Part shown: positions 33,179 through 39,247 of the stretch, in pieces | Numbering within the stretch: position 1 is the first letter of the stretch | Layout of the letters: each line of letters starts with the position of its first letter | Sequence record: NC_016158.1 | DNA from: Escherichia phage HK639 | DNA length: 49,576 nucleotides | Reading direction: 5' to 3' (one strand) | Notes under the pieces: model-generated | What the model saw: only the letters and a program-made list of their open reading frames with translations | Told to the model about the DNA's origin: nothing | The model's database searches: none | Position numbers and translations under genes: made by a program

Positions 33179-33200
33179 TAAAAAACCCGCCGGAGCGGGT
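33179..33200 (-). terminator. Intrinsic terminator (minus strand)
   Basis: Minus strand reads ACCCGC-TCCG-GCGGGT followed by TTTTTTATC, abutting the stop of the membrane-protein gene. Confidence 0.75.
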
Positions 33201-33649
33201 TACTTAATTAGTGAGGCTGCGTATTCGAGGAGATACAGTTTTGGGGCCAGCCAGATTTTTAGCCACGTCAGGTCAGATAAGATGACGAAGGCGATGACCG
33301 AATACAGGAACATAATGGTTCCAAAAAACACTGACGAAGCACTGATAGTGCCGTCTTTGTCCCAGACCAATGTTGGTCTATATTTTGGCTTGCCGCGTTC
33401 CCATGAATATCCCTCTTCGCCATAAACTCCGTCCTGCTCGCGCTTCATCATTACCCTGAAGAATTTAATCGCAACCGGGATAGTCGCCAGAATAACCAGC
33501 GTGAGCATCATGCTTTTGGTGAATTTCCATACCAGCAACTGATGCACAACCTCCGGGATCTGCGCTTGGCTAAATGACACCGCAGCATCGATGCCATTCG
33601 CCGCTTTCTGTAATAGATCAACGAGAATTTTGTTCGCTTGTTCGTTCAT
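33200..33649 (-). CDS. Membrane protein (two or more TM helices), possible superinfection-exclusion function
   Basis: 149 aa; hydrophobic stretches MMLTLVILATIPVAIKFF and VFFGTIMFLYSVIAFVILSDL; own terminator. Confidence 0.65.
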   Translation of the reverse strand: MNEQANKILVDLLQKAANGIDAAVSFSQAQIPEVVHQLLVWKFTKSMMLTLVILATIPVAIKFFRVMMKREQDGVYGEEGYSWERGKPKYRPTLVWDKDGTISASSVFFGTIMFLYSVIAFVILSDLTWLKIWLAPKLYLLEYAASLIK

Positions 33650-33693
33650 AATTGCCCTCTGTCGTTACCCGCAGATGCGGGAGAAATGCTTTG

Positions 33694-33765
33694 TGGTGGA
33701 GTGCTCCGGATTCGAACCGAAGTTTTCATGGGTGATCAGTCCATGCAGGCCCAGCCACACCCCAC
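33694..33765 (-). ncRNA. tRNA-like element (canonical T-arm and ...CCA end, reduced D-arm, 9-nt anticodon-like loop)
   Basis: Minus strand reads GTGGGGTG-TGGCTGGGCCTG-CATGG-ACTGATCAC-CCATG-AAAAC-TTCGG-TTCGAAT-CCGGA-G-CACTCCAC-CA. An 8-bp closing stem is possible. It does not fit a standard cloverleaf. Confidence 0.4.
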
Positions 33766-33887
33766 TACAAAACATTCCAGTTATTGCCGGGGTATTTATC
33801 CGCGCCCGGCGCGCGCTTTCCCGCTATTCCCCAACAGCAAGAAATCGCTTACTCTTTAATCTCCCCAACAGTAGAAAGGATATATTC

Positions 33888-34109
33888 ATGCAAACCATGC
33901 GGACCGTGTGCCCTGACTGCGGAAGTGAGATGTTCAACCAGCCCGATGATTTTGACTTTGAGACAAATTTCACCGGCGTCAGTTGTGCTGACTGTGGTCG
34001 AGAAATCACTAAGGACGATGTTGTCAATCAGGCCACGGACACGGTCAAAAAACAGATCGACGACATGCTCAGGAATTCCCTGAAAGGAACTGGCTGGAAG
34101 TTCAAGTAA
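33888..34109 (+). CDS. Zinc-ribbon protein (73 aa)
   Basis: CPDC...(21 aa)...CADC pairs; SD AAAGGA; codon usage looks coding. The exact-antisense 115-aa ORF is judged a shadow, but that is not certain. Confidence 0.6.
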   Translation: MQTMRTVCPDCGSEMFNQPDDFDFETNFTGVSCADCGREITKDDVVNQATDTVKKQIDDMLRNSLKGTGWKFK

Positions 34110-34145
34110 CCTTAAAAGCTCCCCGAACTGAGTAAGAACCTCACT

Positions 34146-34181
34146 GGCGTCTACGTTAAGCAGTAGTGGCGCCGTTTTTTT
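34146..34181 (+). terminator. Probable terminator after the zinc-ribbon gene
   Basis: Interrupted stem GGCG/CTAC...GTAG/CGCC followed by G+TTTTTTT. Confidence 0.45.
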
Positions 34182-34388
34182 ATCTGCCATACACACCCCT
34201 CTGTTTGTTTACCGTCAGCCCCTCGCAAAGAGCTGCTGGTAAATCGTTTAGCCATAATTGCCGCTCTTCCTGAGCCCGCCTATGGTCCGACGCATGGTTT
34301 ACTGTCGCGCCGTTCGACTGACCGAATCTCCACTTCGCCGCTGGCTAACTTCCCTCAGCTATCGATGTTTCGTTTCGATGGATTAAAG

Positions 34389-34448
34389 ATAACCTTAGTT
34401 ATGAGTGATGGCAATAACCTAATTTATAATATCAATCACATAAGTTAT
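34389..34448. promoter_or_regulatory. OL-like operator cluster (three cI-type sites)
   Basis: ATAACCTTAGTTAT (34389-34402), ATAACCTAATTTAT (34414-34427) and ATCACATAAGTTAT (34435-34448). Compare the OR sites ATAAC(C/A/T)-NN-GGTTAT. Spacing 25 and 21 bp, in an AT-rich promoter-like context. Confidence 0.6.
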
Positions 34449-34525
34449 AAATTAATGATAACTAAATGAATTTATTTTTGTAAATCATGAGTGCTATGCT
34501 CACAAAAACAGCAGGAGGGATGTGC

Positions 34526-34723
34526 ATGGTTCTGGATGAAGAGCGTATAAGCATGAAAATTCAGGCGATGGGGCGGGCGGTGATGGAATTGTCACTGGCT
34601 GATTTACCCATGACCCAGCAAAACATCATCGACAAGCTGGAGCAGTACCGGAAGGAAACAGGAAACGTGATAGGGAAGGGCGTGAACAGGGATGCGGCTG
34701 AGATAGTGTGGAAAGGCTTATAG
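34526..34723 (+). CDS. Small regulator-like protein (possibly YmgB/AriR-like)
   Basis: 65 aa from ATG 34526 (6 nt after AGGAGGG). MGRAVMELSLADLPMTQQNIIDKLEQY... loosely resembles recalled AriR. Confidence 0.45.
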   Translation: MVLDEERISMKIQAMGRAVMELSLADLPMTQQNIIDKLEQYRKETGNVIGKGVNRDAAEIVWKGL

Positions 34724-34897
34724 ATGGTTAACGGTGTCACCAATGGTAAATCGTTTACCAAGGATGACAGCGTTTACCAGAGGGATCGGGTTGTTTACCA
34801 GCTGGCGGGGAATAGACGCCGTTAATGCCAGCATCCCATAATATTCAATTGGTTACGCTGACGTGGTGGTGGTGGTCGAATGGGGATCGGCAGACAC

Positions 34898-34921
34898 AAA
34901 AAACCCGGCGCGGGGCCGGGG
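34898..34921 (-). terminator. Intrinsic terminator ending the TAC-like cassette (minus strand)
   Basis: Minus strand reads CCCGGC-CCCGC-GCCGGG followed by TTTTTTGT, 6 nt after the stop of ORF 34927-35325. Confidence 0.75.
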
Positions 34922-34926
34922 AGGGG

Positions 34927-35325
34927 TTAGTTCATTGGAAGAGAAATTCCAGAAACTCCCGCTTGTGCAAGTAGGGTATCAGCGAAGAATTTAAAATAAG
35001 TTTTCATGAACGACGAAAAATACCATGTATTTTCAATAAGAAACGTTTCATCTACAGTTTTATCTTTTGGATATGTATAGACCATCTTCATATCTATTTT
35101 TAAAGAAAACACTTTTGTAGATTTATCAGGACCATAGCTATCAGCAAAGGGACTGGCATGAACGATAATCACTGATAGATCAGGGTTGGAAAGTAGAGTC
35201 CCGCCAGCCTCAAAATTTAAATCGCCATACTCGAAAGTAACCTCTCCGCCATAAGAGTCTCCTAAGCGCGAAATTGCGCTATTAGTTACTGATGCTTCAA
35301 TGAGTTGCAATTCGCTTAATAGCAT
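34927..35325 (-). CDS. SecB-like chaperone candidate (third gene of the cassette)
   Basis: 132 aa, beta-rich N-half, C-terminal ...FFADTLLAQAGVSGISLPMN resembling the SecB ...MVSRGTFPQLNLAPVNF end. Overlaps the antitoxin stop by 10 nt. Confidence 0.45.
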   Translation of the reverse strand: MLLSELQLIEASVTNSAISRLGDSYGGEVTFEYGDLNFEAGGTLLSNPDLSVIIVHASPFADSYGPDKSTKVFSLKIDMKMVYTYPKDKTVDETFLIENTWYFSSFMKTYFKFFADTLLAQAGVSGISLPMN

Positions 35326-35738
35326 TTCGTTTGATATTCCGCATTGCTTGTTTTAATAGTAATTTTAATGGTCTGGCCCGGGTTATCGCTAACATCGGCC
35401 GCTTTCCATGAGAGTCGTTTCATATCTGGAATGATGGCATGCGAGACGTCCACTCCTTCTCTTAATATGACAACTTTCGCCACGGCCCCTAAAGCATAGG
35501 CCATATCAGAAAGGGTTTTGAGAGTCATATTCCGAGTGCCGTCGAGCAGCTGGCTTACATGACCTTTAGATTTACCCAATTTTTTAGCTAGCTCGGACTG
35601 AGAAATGTTCGCGTCCTGCATTGCTAAAAGAAGGTCTTCAGTTGTGTTAAAGATCAAGCGCTCACACGCCATCTCTCGCTCACTAACCTCCGGGAAATCA
35701 AAATTATCATCACTAAACAGATTGTTAGCAATCATCAT
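35316..35738 (-). CDS. XRE-family HTH antitoxin (HigA-like) with C-terminal extension
   Basis: HTH ISQSELAKKLGKSKGHVSQLLDGTRNMTLKTLSDMAYALG, with about 45 extra C-terminal residues. The ATGs at 35738/35735 are preferred to track TTG 35750. Confidence 0.7.
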   Translation of the reverse strand: MMIANNLFSDDNFDFPEVSEREMACERLIFNTTEDLLLAMQDANISQSELAKKLGKSKGHVSQLLDGTRNMTLKTLSDMAYALGAVAKVVILREGVDVSHAIIPDMKRLSWKAADVSDNPGQTIKITIKTSNAEYQTKCY

Positions 35739-36129
35739 GGCCTCGCTCAATTCTTTCCCAATTATTTTTCACCTTTTGGACATCTGAGTCATCAAGTCGG
35801 TCAAAATCTTTGTATATGTAATGACTAATAAAAATCGTCATATCATGTCTGTCAGACTCCCAGTAGTAACCTCTAATCGGAATCTTCTTTATAGCCCAGA
35901 AATTCTTAGCTGGCTTTCCGTTAAACGATGGCAAAATTCCTTCTTTGCGAACACTCAAGTCAGGCGTCCTTTTGCCAGAAGCCAAGCGCTCAAGTTGCAG
36001 GATGAGTGATATCTGCATACTTTTCTGCCTCTTTGCAGGAGTAACGCTTTTCAGCGATTCGCTCAGGGATTTCAATGCTCCCTTACAATGCACTATCCGA
36101 TAACACTCACCCTGTATGGAGCCTTTCAA
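35725..36129 (-). CDS. RelE/HigB superfamily toxin (Gp49/DUF891-like)
   Basis: C-terminal core FWAIKKIPIRGYYWESDRHDMTIFISHYIYKDFDRL resembles Gp49-like HigB toxins. Toxin-first order. TTG start after GGTGA. Confidence 0.6.
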   Translation of the reverse strand: MKGSIQGECYRIVHCKGALKSLSESLKSVTPAKRQKSMQISLILQLERLASGKRTPDLSVRKEGILPSFNGKPAKNFWAIKKIPIRGYYWESDRHDMTIFISHYIYKDFDRLDDSDVQKVKNNWERIERGHDDC

Positions 36130-36291: not shown

Positions 36292-36981
36292 TCAAAGCTT
36301 GTTGTAAGCAATGGACTCATGGATCAGCGCCTTACCCATGATGTACAGCTGGTCCTGATTTTCTTCTGTCACATACCAGTCTTTGTACGCCGGGTTATCG
36401 GAAAGTACAGCCAACTGCAGACCCTGCATTTGCAGGCGCTTAACGTGGAAGTGCTGCCCGAAGACAAACGCATACACCCCGTCAACTTTGAAGTTCCTCA
36501 CTGAAACGTCAAAGAAGAGGCGATCGCCAGACTGTATTGTCGGGCACATGCTGTCGCCGTCTACGGTCATCACCTTCACATCATTTTGAGTGCGGTTCCC
36601 GAAAAGAGATCTGGCATGCTCAGTTGTGAACTCAATAGCATGCAGGACCTCAACAAATTCAGAAATCATAAAAGACCCCGGACCAGCGCTTACTTTCAGG
36701 TCTAAAACATCAACCCGAAAGACATCAATTGTTTCCGAGACCGGTTGGGCCGCCGATGGCACATTACCATCAATCCGCATTTCCCCCACTCCAGAACTAA
36801 GCCATTCCGGCCTTACACCCAGAGCATGAGCTAGCTCGACCATCTTACGGCTGCCGCTCGTTTTACCTGATGTCATCTTTTGAATTGCAGGCTGGGATAT
36901 ACCGACTTTATCAGCCAACTGTCCTTGAGATATGTCAGCGGCCGACATAGCCGCGTTCAGTCGTTCTGCAAATGTTTTCAT
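36292..36981 (-). CDS. cI: CI-type repressor (HTH + S24 LexA-like autopeptidase)
   Basis: HTH ISQGQLADKVGISQPAIQKMTSG; Ala-Gly site (VSAGPG); GDSM serine and VKRL lysine; divergent from cro across the operators. Confidence 0.9.
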   Translation of the reverse strand: MKTFAERLNAAMSAADISQGQLADKVGISQPAIQKMTSGKTSGSRKMVELAHALGVRPEWLSSGVGEMRIDGNVPSAAQPVSETIDVFRVDVLDLKVSAGPGSFMISEFVEVLHAIEFTTEHARSLFGNRTQNDVKVMTVDGDSMCPTIQSGDRLFFDVSVRNFKVDGVYAFVFGQHFHVKRLQMQGLQLAVLSDNPAYKDWYVTEENQDQLYIMGKALIHESIAYNKL

Positions 36982-37091: not shown

Positions 37092-37319
37092 ATGAACAAA
37101 GTTATTCAACGAGCTTTAGAAATCGTTGGCAGCCAGAAGCGACTCGCAGATATTTGCGGCGTTAGCCAGCCAGCGGTTCACAAGTGGCTTAACGGTGGTT
37201 CCGTATCTCCGGAAAAAGTAACAGCCATCGTAAACGCTACTGGTGGCGAGATTAAGGCACACGAAATTCGACCTGATCTTCCCGACCTGTTTCCACACCC
37301 AGAGAACCATGCCGCTTAA
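37092..37319 (+). CDS. cro: Cro-like repressor (YdaS family HTH)
   Basis: 75 aa; GSQKRLADICGVSQPAVHKWLNGG; divergent from cI. Confidence 0.75.
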   Translation: MNKVIQRALEIVGSQKRLADICGVSQPAVHKWLNGGSVSPEKVTAIVNATGGEIKAHEIRPDLPDLFPHPENHAA

Positions 37320-37348: not shown

Positions 37349-37894
37349 ATGCATTCACTTGCGTATCAACAAGGTAACAAATTTTCGCCAACGGCGATGA
37401 TTTACCAGAATCGCCGGGAGCCTGATTCCGCGGCGTTAAACATCGATGGGATTCGCGCAGCGGTTCGCGCCTGGGCAGCTGATTGCCGCAGCCGTGAATT
37501 TGTCGCCGCTCTGATTGTTGAAGAGTGGCGGGCAATCGGCGGCACCGGACTTGATATCCCGACTGACTCACACCGCCAGATGCAGAAGGTGTTCCGCTGG
37601 ATCGACGGGGACACCGAATATGCGGCCAACAACATTCGCCAGCTGGCACCGGCAATCATGGCCGTGCTGCCGCTGGAGTACCGCAACCGCCTGGCACCGC
37701 AGAACGACACGATGTCGCTAATCGCCTCTGCAATGAAAGAGTGTGCCGAGGCTAAACAGGCCGTGCTGCTGGACGCTCCAGAGCATCAGAAGCTGAAAGA
37801 GGTAAGCGAGGGTATAGCGTCGCTGTTCCGCCTCATGCCGGAGCAGGTAGGGCCGTTGATGACGATGGTGACGTCGATGCTGGGGGTTATGTGA
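37349..37894 (+). CDS. CII-analogue (YdaT-like regulatory protein)
   Basis: HRQMQKVFRWIDGDTEYAANNIRQLAPAIMAVLPLEYRNRL aligns by eye with recalled YdaT QQNIYHRWLKGETKTQREKIQKLIPAILAILPRELRHRL; sits in the cII position. Confidence 0.55.
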   Translation: MHSLAYQQGNKFSPTAMIYQNRREPDSAALNIDGIRAAVRAWAADCRSREFVAALIVEEWRAIGGTGLDIPTDSHRQMQKVFRWIDGDTEYAANNIRQLAPAIMAVLPLEYRNRLAPQNDTMSLIASAMKECAEAKQAVLLDAPEHQKLKEVSEGIASLFRLMPEQVGPLMTMVTSMLGVM

Positions 37895-37979: not shown

Positions 37980-38384
37980 ATGGCAGGACAAACAAAGCAA
38001 GTAAACACCGAGCTAAGGGCTGGTGACAGGTTCGAAACTGCATACCCATTTATCTATGTGTGCACAGATTACCAGTCATACGACGGCAACGTGCATACCG
38101 ATGAGCGTTGGATTGGCGGTTGCCACAAAAATTATGAGCCCGCTGACTGTGGGTATGGTGATCAGTGCTTTTACACCGCTGATGCTGAAGGAAAGCGAAT
38201 TCTTGAGGTTTTGGCTGTCGTGGAAATGCCAGGTAATTGGCAGAGAAGAATTATTTACGCCTGTCATCTCATAGAACCTGAAGGTAAGGAGAGGAAAGGC
38301 AGAAAGGCTTACACAGTAACTGAATCCAGATTCTTAAAAATGGCTTCTGGTTATTTTGCAGATTACGAATTGGAGGATGCCTAA
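37980..38384 (+). CDS. Hypothetical protein
   Basis: 134 aa from ATG 37980; Cys/Tyr-rich; between the cII-like and O-like genes. Confidence 0.5.
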   Translation: MAGQTKQVNTELRAGDRFETAYPFIYVCTDYQSYDGNVHTDERWIGGCHKNYEPADCGYGDQCFYTADAEGKRILEVLAVVEMPGNWQRRIIYACHLIEPEGKERKGRKAYTVTESRFLKMASGYFADYELEDA

Positions 38385-39247
38385 TGGCTCGCTCAAGAAA
38401 CATTAAGCCAGGCTTTTTCACAAATGACGAGCTTGCAGAATGCCAGCCACTGGCGCGCATCCTCTTCGCTGGCTTGTGGACTATCGCCGATAAAGAGGGG
38501 CGCCTGGATGACCGCCCTAAGAAAATTAAAGCCATGGTGCTGCCTTTTGATGATGTCGATTGTGACGCTTTGTTGCAGCAGCTGCATCAGCACAAATTCA
38601 TCAACCGTTACCAGGTAAAAGGCGATTCCTACATTCAAGTTTCTAACTGGAAAAAGCATCAGAACCCGCACTGCAAAGAAGCGGCAAGTGAGATACCAGA
38701 ACCATCTCAGAACCAAAATGGCACCGAACAAGAACAGTGCAATTCAGATGCAAAAGAGGAAAAGGAAGAAGAGGGAAAGCCTCAAGTAATTGAAAATAAT
38801 GAAGCACAAGAAAAGCACGGTGCTAGTAAGGTGCAAGAACAGGTTAAGAACAGTTTAAATCCTGCTGATTCCCTTAACCTGATTCCTGATTCCCCTATCC
38901 CTGATCCGGATTCCTTGGTTAACACCCAAGCCGCTGACGCGTCTTGCGAAGAGGCCAATGCAGATATTCATGAAATATCGAGTCGGTACGCATTCGAGGG
39001 CCAGATCGTACGGCTGAACCACAAGGACTACCAGGCATGGTTAAGCCTGTACCCGCTGATAGACCTGAATTACGAGCTTCAGAAGCTGGATATCGAGTTC
39101 ACTCATGAGAAGCCAAAAAATTGGTTTATCACTGCCAGCCAGAAGCTGAGTTATCAGAACAAGCAAGCGGCAGTGCGCTGCAAACCAGCCGCTAAGCCGG
39201 ATCTGGACTTCAACAACACCGACTGGGCTTATGGGGTGATTCGATGA
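38384..39247 (+). CDS. Replication initiator (O-like) with internal origin repeats
   Basis: 287 aa upstream of the lambda-P homologue. Conserved N-terminus MARSRNIKPGFFTNDELAECQPLARILFAGLW. Low-complexity middle region encoded by repeats. Confidence 0.65.
   Translation: MARSRNIKPGFFTNDELAECQPLARILFAGLWTIADKEGRLDDRPKKIKAMVLPFDDVDCDALLQQLHQHKFINRYQVKGDSYIQVSNWKKHQNPHCKEAASEIPEPSQNQNGTEQEQCNSDAKEEKEEEGKPQVIENNEAQEKHGASKVQEQVKNSLNPADSLNLIPDSPIPDPDSLVNTQAADASCEEANADIHEISSRYAFEGQIVRLNHKDYQAWLSLYPLIDLNYELQKLDIEFTHEKPKNWFITASQKLSYQNKQAAVRCKPAAKPDLDFNNTDWAYGVIR
38861..38917 (+). repeat. Iteron-like CTGATTCC repeats, candidate ori
   Basis: CCTGCTGATTCCCTTAACCTGATTCCTGATTCCCCTATCCCTGATCCGGATTCC, preceded by a purine/A-rich tract, inside the O-like gene as in lambda. 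Confidence 0.5.

Follow-up and report, generated by a model that had tools for sequence, protein, structure and literature searches.

Features of the locus

Escherichia phage HK639 (sequence record NC_016158.1) was analyzed as one strand of 49,576 nucleotides, the whole of which is called the window here, and it is a phi80-like lambdoid prophage. The region of interest spans positions 34,182 to 34,897. It holds a cluster of cI operators (the left operator, OL) with the leftward promoter pL, a small gene of 65 amino acids (aa), and copies of the heptamer GTTTACC on both sides of these. A sequence-only reading had treated six such copies, together with two palindromes built on them, as one system through which a second DNA- or RNA-binding regulator acts at the early-left control region. 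Comparison with related loci suggests that the region is, on balance, probably a composite of four independent features: OL/pL, a small-gene cassette, an orphan operator array directly behind that gene, and motifs of the pL leader (Table 1). The array is homologous to, and built like, arrays that in relatives occupy the control region ahead of a gene for a ParA-like ATPase. The window lacks that gene, and its array is an accessory element that most related phages do not have.

Table 1. Coordinates of the features discussed, in window positions (SD, Shine-Dalgarno sequence; HTH, helix-turn-helix; OR, right operator;., no strand assigned)
Feature	Position	Strand	Remarks
Zinc-ribbon gene, ECs_2282-family	33888-34109	+	NCBIfam E 7.9e-24; antisense to pL transcript
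pL-leader hairpin	34208-34243	-	From fold and conservation; just 5' of SD and ATG at 34190
Left palindrome TGGTAAATCGTTTAGCC	34237-34253	.	Right half allelic
GTTTACT	34297-34303	+	Kept only in phages of the same leader type
Start of leftward leader (first ~50 nt)	34331-34378	-	Invariant in phi80, M37H, GB089 and L6-21 (alignment)
Candidate pL	34386-34414	-	-35 TTGCCA (34414-34409), -10 TATCTT (34391-34386), 17-nt gap
OL, three predicted cI operators	34389-34448	.	ATAAC-N4-GTTAT; pattern unique to OL and OR
OL operator site ATAACCTTAGTTAT	34389-34402		
OL operator site ATAACCTAATTTAT	34414-34427		
OL operator site ATCACATAAGTTAT	34435-34448		
Putative extended -10 element TGcTATGCT	34493-34501	+	Preceded by ATTTATTTTT
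65-aa gene, phrog_3975	34526-34723	+	Directed away from pL
Operator unit C TGGTTAACGGTGTCACCA	34725-34742	+	Half-sites TGGTTAAC and TGGTGAC
Operator unit D TGGTAAA-TCG-TTTACCA	34744-34760	+	Perfect palindrome; holds first right-hand GTTTACC
Operator unit F' GGATGACAGCGTTTACCA	34762-34779	+	Inverted degenerate copy of C; followed by SD-like GAGGG
Conserved 3' spacer of cassette	34782-34895	+	Aligned with L013, L206, L327 and Salmonella L356
Third GTTTACCA	34793-34800	+	Within conserved 3' spacer, outside array
Intrinsic terminator of leftward cI-side operon	34904-34920	-	CCCGGCCCCGCGCCGGG and TTTTTTGTGT; no U-run on + strand
cI	36292-36981	-	HTH_3 and Peptidase_S24 domains
Cro, YdaS-type	37092-37319	+	Right of cI
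CII, YdaT-type	37349-37894	+	Right of cI

Two right-hand repeats belong to an array of operator-like units

GTTTACC occurs on the plus strand at 34207, 34753, 34772 and 34793, and GTTTACT at 34297. Five of the six sites in the sequence-only reading, all in one orientation, therefore stand as described, but the sixth, at 34246, reads GTTTAGC. The predicted enrichment over a shuffled background is real: none of 1000 dinucleotide shuffles contained three or more GTTTACC within 60 bp, and a one-strand group of at least five GTTTACY inside 600 bp was likewise absent from all 1000. Both palindromes also proved to be as described, the right one perfect and the left one with a single mismatch in 15 bp, and a 14-nt sequence (TGGTAAATCGTTTA) recurs without any change at 34237 and 34744.

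The right-hand repeats share the 8-nt word GTTTACCA. Its copies at 34753 and 34772 have inverted partners at 34725 and 34744, and these are the half-sites of three units. Together the units make up a 55-bp array (34725-34779). Each is a palindrome of 17-18 bp built as TGGTnAAC-N(1-3)-GTTnACCA, in which a half-site may also read TGGTGAC. The array reads TGGTTAACGGTGTCACCA, TGGTAAATCGTTTACCA, GGATGACAGCGTTTACCA and GAGGG, that is, units C, D and F' followed by an SD-like tail. The copies at 34753 and 34772 are the right half-sites of units D and F', and the 19-bp spacing between them is the unit length. Because unit F is an inverted copy of unit C, the array also forms a long inverted repeat with 26-nt arms (34725-34750 with 34754-34779). 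Replication-type iterons, looked for as direct repeats of 17-22 bp with a Rep gene and an AT-rich element, were not found here; as only 8 bp are common to the copies, and the units are palindromic with inverted partners, the repeats are not of that type.

To retrieve related loci we used a pattern taken from the start of the insert that carries the array (GGTTAACGRTGTCAC-N2-30-TGGTAA), which returned 65 viral loci. In about 13 of the 65, the motif lies immediately upstream of a ParA-like gene and downstream of cI and its terminator. The encoded protein (MKKYAIWNNKGGTGKT...; 339-348 aa) matches phrog_164 (E 1.7e-37) and the Pfam family AAA_31 (E 8e-18), and is of the AAA_31/CbiA kind. In lambdoid prophages of Enterobacter and Salmonella, its gene is the immediate downstream neighbour of cI (L298, 8858-10050; L314, 800-1985; L356, 2390-3572). 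The entire distance from the cI terminator to the SD of the ParA-like gene is filled by four to six contiguous 17-18-bp palindromes. Ten parA-linked loci share the order terminator, unit A, unit B, CTTGAYC, unit C, unit D, sometimes unit E, unit F, SD, ATG, so that the array covers the conserved -35-like CTTGAYC and everything downstream of it. This architecture is kept to 72% DNA identity in Salmonella.

Position weight matrices (PWMs) were built from the ParA-linked arrays only and scanned over the whole 49.6-kb window. Unit D is the top window match of the 17-bp matrix, at 27.9 bits compared to a maximum of 21.3 in 200 shuffles, and is identical to a unit of L350. Unit C is the top window match of the 18-bp matrix, at 21.4 bits, and fits unit C of L350 and L314. 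Unit F' contains the second right-hand GTTTACC and scores 12.4 bits; its counterpart in the ParA-linked arrays is the SD-proximal unit, (a/c)(a/t)GTGACATCGTTAACCA. Over 37 nt, window positions 34725-34761 are 97% identical to L350 1406-1442, in the ParA sense and including the asymmetric spacers CGG and TCG. In the ParA-bearing loci, sites of at least 15 bits are confined to the array, save one stray in L306.

By homology, then, the window repeats belong to the ParA-associated arrays. An adjacent ATPase gene is missing: the window contains no Walker-A KGGxGKT motif and gave no tblastn match to the ParA-like protein. The -35-like element is likewise gone, replaced by the end of the small gene. 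Because both the gene and this element are absent, the array is an orphan in the window. The third right-hand copy of GTTTACCA, at 34793, is not a PWM unit. Other lineages have GTGGTAATCG (L013), TGCTGCCCAT (L206) or GGTGACAAAG (L356) at its position, and by these alignments it is a lineage-specific copy.

The ParA-like protein is encoded by the only gene constantly linked to the array. It has no N-terminal HTH, its C-terminal ~130 aa have no family match, and no gene for a ParB-like or other centromere-binding protein was seen in its operon. No PADLOC model matched it, the module was found in no complete E. coli genome at megablast level, and a literature search for the exact unit sequences returned no paper. 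We rejected three other candidates for a protein that would bind the array. The YmgB-like product of the small gene is not encoded in 6 of 11 parA-bearing loci, and in phi80 the gene occurs without the array. For the YdaT-type CII, neither the window nor L298 has a PWM-type site where cro and cII meet; the known YdaT-family site is TTGATT-N6-AATCAA (PMC9986795), which is similar in its hexamer-N6-hexamer shape, but there is no array-type site where CII should bind. The downstream HTH module was set aside as well, since insert-bearing relatives have other neighbours there, such as an MqsA-like gene in M37H.

It should also be noted that units C and D occur within coding sequence elsewhere (L355, 9128-9592; L296, near 4957), where they encode VNDVTxGKPLT at the junction of the N- and C-modules of a 154-aa protein near int. 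The same motif was found in a zinc-ribbon protein. It is present in about 60% of 35 unique homologs of the 154-aa protein and absent from about 40%. Synonymous-site entropy in the 154-aa gene is 0.83 within the motif and 0.96 elsewhere, which is no clear excess of conservation. A generic scan of viral contigs for GTTTACC-N8-18-GTTTACC-N8-18-GTTTACC picked up tandem repeats in coding sequence that have no relation to the array; most of them came from giant viruses and unrelated phages.

The array is inserted within a small-gene cassette

The open reading frame (ORF) proposed at 34526-34723 is a real gene, whose product matches phrog_3975 (E 2.6e-34) and has its relatives chiefly in the Enterobacter cloacae complex. 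A three-helix protein is predicted, with moderate model confidence (predicted local distance difference test score 74). The product has no Pfam match at E<=0.1, no NCBIfam match and no PDB sequence match. It weakly resembles YmgB/AriR (PDB 2OXL), with an hhalign probability of 8%; the loose likeness suggested earlier is therefore fair as worded, but it does not extend to a match with the Pfam profile PF10798 at the same threshold.

Every homolog of the small gene is preceded by TGnTA(T/C)GnT with ATTTATTTTT upstream of it, across at least five immunity/operator types and to 52% protein identity, and this element is putatively its extended -10 promoter. An intact 69-aa homolog with the same promoter element lies between OL3 and gene 40A of phi80 (L001 4043-4252, equal to JX871397 33348-33557), without annotation in the GenBank record. 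In phi80, the terminator hairpin found at 34904-34920 of the window directly follows this ORF. Because conserved promoter, gene and terminator occur together, they appear from their sequence to be a self-contained cassette facing away from pL. Between gene and terminator, the 3' spacer of ~115 nt has the conserved blocks TGGCGGG, ATATTCAAT, GTTAC and CGGCAG, and a weak promoter-like TAGACG-18-CATAAT at 34813-34842. The non-coding spacer of ~140 nt with the terminator (34782-34925, plus strand) is ~55-65% conserved relative to L206/L327 and Salmonella L356, stands downstream of unrelated small genes, and could be a small RNA or a 3' untranslated region (UTR) element.

The spacer right behind the convergent small gene of Salmonella L356, and that of L206/L327, share homology with the window from 34782 on. 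Since the homologous spacer comes right after the L356 small gene, the array is an insertion of ~58 bp between stop codon and spacer. Of a first set of 83 loci, 13 have this insert, as do 11 of the 85 whose downstream sequence is long enough; roughly 85% of relatives, phi80 among them, do not have it. Insert-bearing loci continue past the stop codon with ATGGTTAACGG, and most others, phi80 included, go straight to a hairpin. Among complete E. coli genomes, 1 of 5426 has the insert. An identical insert is present in E. coli M37H next to a different OL, leader and set of downstream genes; therefore, the insert moves with the small gene and not with immunity or early-left control. Two other origins were considered and rejected. 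A miniature inverted-repeat transposable element, or any multi-copy element, does not fit a single copy per genome and one E. coli genome in 5426. A deletion remnant of an adjacent ParA gene does not fit either, as the ParA-sense orientation (97% identity to L350) and the homologous spacer point to insertion.

The insert varies among its carriers. In L013 the third repeat copy has been lost, and in L033 a deletion of 19 bp separates off copy 1 from copy 2; variants of this kind show that the repeats can be dispensed with. L206 is identical to window unit C at 15 of 16 positions though the flanks have diverged, and the symmetry of its central palindrome is kept by a two-sided change, GGTAAG...CTTACC. 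No fewer than four diverged lineages (the window type, L206/L327, L302 and L323) have an orphan array right behind the stop codon of a convergent small gene, and the small genes that precede these arrays belong to two unrelated families, YmgB-like and FumD-like.

These positions bear on the claim that a second regulator acts at early-left control. As that claim would have it, the repeats on the right are members of a family of operator-like sites, but the array is not part of the early-left region: it lies downstream of a rightward gene, is absent from ~85% of relatives, and corresponds to the control region of the ParA-like gene in the relatives that have one.

Left-hand motifs as probable parts of the pL leader

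The left operator itself is as first described. Within the window, matches to ATMAC-N4-KTTAT are confined to 34389, 34414 and 34435 (OL) and to 36993, 37017 and 37042 (OR), giving 10 strand-matches compared to 0.21 expected, a count that none of 100 shuffles reached. The three left-hand sites fit the phage's own OR consensus and are ~21-25 bp apart (25/21 bp at OL, 24/25 bp at OR). They lie 1.84 kb from the end of cI (36292), in agreement with the ~1.85 kb given earlier. By sequence these are OL sites of the ordinary lambdoid kind, and binding by cI is predicted. The proposal that pL lies at OL is supported by a promoter-like sequence found in a consensus scan (9/12 match), which overlaps OL1, abuts OL2, and has the same layout as the annotated pL/OL of phi80. 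The top-scoring promoter-like site of the region is a different one, TTTACA-18-TATCAT (10/12; 34455-34484, minus strand). It is located between OL3 and the small gene, points leftward, and has an operator half-site beside it (ATAAC at 34459).

The start of the leftward leader, 34331-34378, is unchanged across phages of differing immunity and operators. It is a conserved leader element, and perhaps the actual antitermination site. No N homolog was found in the window, and the search for a nut site gave only a boxA-like GCUCUUUG within the leader hairpin and no match to the annotated phi80 boxB core, in line with the earlier statement that neither an N-like protein nor a convincing nut site is visible. 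The annotated nutL core of phi80 was also not found in L6-21, despite an identical N protein. The position of N in the window (33200-33700, minus strand) is filled by a gene for a 149-aa membrane protein (phrog_3054), which is preceded by the same short leader hairpin (CCCGCAGATGCGGG) and SD as N in phi80.

Further along the leader, a hairpin is formed in the order UUUACC-AG-CAGCUCUU-UGCG-AGGGGCUG-AC-GGUAAA. Its inner stem is CAGCUCUU/AGGGGCUG, with the boxA-like sequence on the 5' arm of that stem and extending into the loop. The basal stem, UUUACC/GGUAAA, is made of the GTTTACC at 34207 and the left arm (34238) of the left palindrome. The predicted folding energy is -16.9 kcal/mol (z -3.5), and G-U pairs are possible on the minus strand only. 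The hairpin block is present in ~35 of 37 retrieved sequence variants, between unrelated flanks, and mostly ends a few nucleotides ahead of an SD and ATG. On this folding and conservation, GTTTACC at 34207 and GGTAAA at 34238 are arms of a conserved leader hairpin and not iterons.

The left palindrome is completed by a right half that is allelic: TCGTTTAGCC is one allele, and TCGCTTTGCC, GCTTCCCC and TCTTTGCG are others. The left palindrome is missing from all 12 other insert-bearing loci examined (L010 has only a near-variant of the allele), and the left allele, which is also present in loci without the insert, shows no association with it. Thus, the palindromes are not a conserved pair that brackets the small gene. 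The left palindrome scores 17.8 bits with the 17-bp matrix, above the 95th percentile of shuffle maxima (15.9) and below their maximum (21.3). A leader site of at least 15 bits occurs in 2 of 87 loci, and none of the ParA-bearing relatives has an operator-like site in its pL leader. The resemblance of the left palindrome to the operator units is likely due to chance.

A single regulator that binds all six GTTTAC(C/T) copies and both palindromes, looping or bracketing OL and the small gene and thereby controlling early-left transcription, would account for the enrichment of the motif on one strand, for the fact that the two palindromes are the two best matches of the 17-bp matrix in the window, and for the location of the left site ~130 nt into the pL leader. 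However, we consider it quite improbable. It does not accommodate the absence of the right cluster from ~85% of relatives, phi80 included, the independent occurrence of the left palindrome and the insert, or the lack of operator-like sites in the pL leaders of ParA-bearing relatives. The sites at 34207 and 34238 are already explained by the leader hairpin, 34246 is no match to the motif, and 34793 is lineage-specific. The six copies are therefore not one system but array half-sites, a hairpin arm, allele-specific leader sequence and a lineage-specific copy. Among relatives, the small gene next to OL and the leader hairpin are conserved, but the right cluster and the pairing of the palindromes are not.

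Origin and possible roles of the orphan array

The reading of the region as a composite suggests the following course. In the relatives, the units would be occupied side by side by a dimeric protein, whether the ParA-like protein or some other factor, and this binding would repress the ParA-like gene. The window most likely acquired its array fragment by modular recombination, and there the array would play no part at pL. It could still form a strong stem-loop in the 3' UTR of the small gene's mRNA, and could bind its cognate protein if this were supplied in trans by another element in the cell.

Four observations weigh against this account. The recurrence of orphan arrays and the symmetric change in L206 hint that the array is kept by selection and is not a mere scar. 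The left palindrome is the second-best match of the 17-bp matrix in the window, so a link to the right site is possible. In the relatives, the proposed ParA promoter (-10 CACCAT) is too weak for detection by a consensus scan, and our search produced no candidate for an array-binding protein.

A function at the RNA level would explain several properties of the insert. In this case the 55-nt imperfect hairpin after the stop codon would be a 3'-UTR stabilizer or a processing site, resembling an RNase III retroregulator, and the repeats would simply be its arms. The array folds strongly as RNA whichever strand is read (-25.4 and -25.8 kcal/mol; z -5.6 and -7.1), a hairpin of some kind stands immediately behind the stop codon in all cassette variants, and the 3-nt loop is freely variable (TCG, CCG, CGT or CAT). 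In L206 one pair is changed on both sides, and one U-G wobble is tolerated on the mRNA strand only. However, this is a single compensatory pair across two lineages, and the 19-bp deletion in L033 removes the outer stem. In the ParA-linked arrays unit C overlaps the putative -10, so the palindrome would be untranscribed there and could have no RNA role. No U-run follows the 34725-34779 hairpin, hence it is not an intrinsic terminator. We regard an RNA function as unlikely.

A second possibility is that the orphan array acts in trans or as a decoy by binding the protein of a ParA module in a co-resident prophage, which would result in immunity, titration or the use of a borrowed partition-like machine. 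Orphan arrays with intact, high-scoring palindromes lie at the same position in four diverged lineages, the change in L206 preserves the palindrome, and the ParA-like genes occupy the cI-adjacent slot that is typical of prophage defence genes. There is also precedent for a DNA element that confers cognate immunity in trans (PMC8585504). The lack of a PADLOC model for the ParA-like protein leaves a defence role unsupported, however, and E. coli M37H has an orphan array although the ParA module is in no complete E. coli genome by megablast. An action of this kind seems unlikely to us. That the array is kept on purpose in phages without the ParA-like gene, as a decoy or immunity element that would titrate or shut off the module of a resident prophage expressing it, or as a means of lending the phage DNA the module's positioning machinery, is a rather doubtful proposition; if true, it would be a novel form of cross-talk between prophages.

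Finally, the repeats might be coding, as part of a 33-aa ORF (34724-34825, MVNGVTNGKSFTKDDSVYQRDRVVYQLAGNRRR) whose translation would be coupled to that of the small gene. The ATG of this ORF comes straight after the TAG that ends the small gene, two of the repeats are in frame (VYQ), and the first codons resemble the VNDVTxGK stretch of the 154-aa phage protein. However, the ORF is cut to 24 aa in L013, frameshifted in L033, and reduced to 14 codons without an ATG in L206; because of these changes in frame and length, we consider it non-coding. The first repeat is in another frame and the ORF has no family match, making this explanation highly improbable.

For annotation, the composite reading tells the genuine OL/pL apart from neighbours that merely appear linked to it, and it adds to the classical phage phi80 a conserved and so far unannotated small gene with its own putative promoter beside OL3. 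The main new element is the ParA-like module with its contiguous operators and their scattered orphan copies, for which we found no description in the searchable literature. If the orphan arrays are functional, they would provide a channel of interaction between co-resident prophages at the DNA level, via shared sites. If they are scars, they would be a clean example of modular recombination scattering regulatory sites and misleading motif-based inference.

Neighbouring genes

Putative replication genes lie past 38 kb, and a replication protein O is annotated in M37H at the position matching the window ORF 38384-39247. Between cI and the terminator is a three-gene module (34927-36129, minus strand) encoding proteins of 132 aa, 144 aa (HTH) and 134 aa. 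Among the candidate families of PADLOC, PDC-M64B matches the 144-aa HTH protein (E 2e-9), and the three genes may be an accessory module that serves in defence or resembles a toxin-antitoxin system.

Left of OL, the pL transcript would be antisense to a zinc-ribbon gene, as had been proposed, and 7 of 10 variable sites in this gene are at third codon positions. Within the same stretch (33849-34196), a 113-aa ORF on the minus strand begins at the conserved SD and ATG at 34190; it may be only a shadow frame. ARAGORN called a tRNA-Ile (gat) at 33694-33763 (minus strand), with the anticodon at the odd position 27, and the Rfam tRNA model found nothing there at E<=10. Relatives such as L298 have the same sequence, and it is most probably no more than a tRNA-like fragment within the pL leader. 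An Rfam search of 33500-35100 at E<=10 returned only sub-threshold chance matches.

Comparison with known systems

In its OL and pL, the window resembles phi80 and lambda: three operators match OR, a candidate leftward promoter lies over OL1 and OL2, accessory genes stand between cI and OL, and a terminator ends the cI-side operon. With phi80 it also shares, at the DNA level, both the small gene and the initial ~50 nt of the leader. It differs from both in operator sequence, and hence in immunity, in having no N homolog, and in a leader that holds a plus-strand zinc-ribbon gene and a tRNA-like fragment.

For the decoy explanation, BstA/aba is an analogy only. The aba element spans the upstream region and the start of the defence gene and acts in trans, as DNA; it is 63 bp long and is not a palindrome array (PMC8585504). 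An accessory slot beside the repressor and an upstream DNA element are common to both, but there is no sequence or protein similarity between BstA/aba and the ParA-like module.

Lambda sib is a hairpin that mediates retroregulation by RNase III. The window array is similar in being a long imperfect hairpin directly 3' of a phage gene that is not an intrinsic terminator, and differs in that the relatives' palindrome lies largely in untranscribed promoter DNA.

A parallel in architecture is type I partition of plasmids and phages, in which arrays of operator or centromere repeats lie upstream of parA, as in the par operator of P1, parC of pB171 and parH of TP228. The window holds only a fragment of such an array, without the ATPase gene. 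The relatives differ from these systems in having no ParB gene, no N-terminal HTH and an unassigned C-terminal region of ~130 aa, and in being apparently integrating lambdoid prophages (an integrase was seen in other loci only) with the module in the cI-adjacent slot. They are alike in that short palindromes fill the stretch from a terminator to the beginning of a ParA-family gene of the deviant-Walker-A type, where they overlap the likely promoter of that gene.

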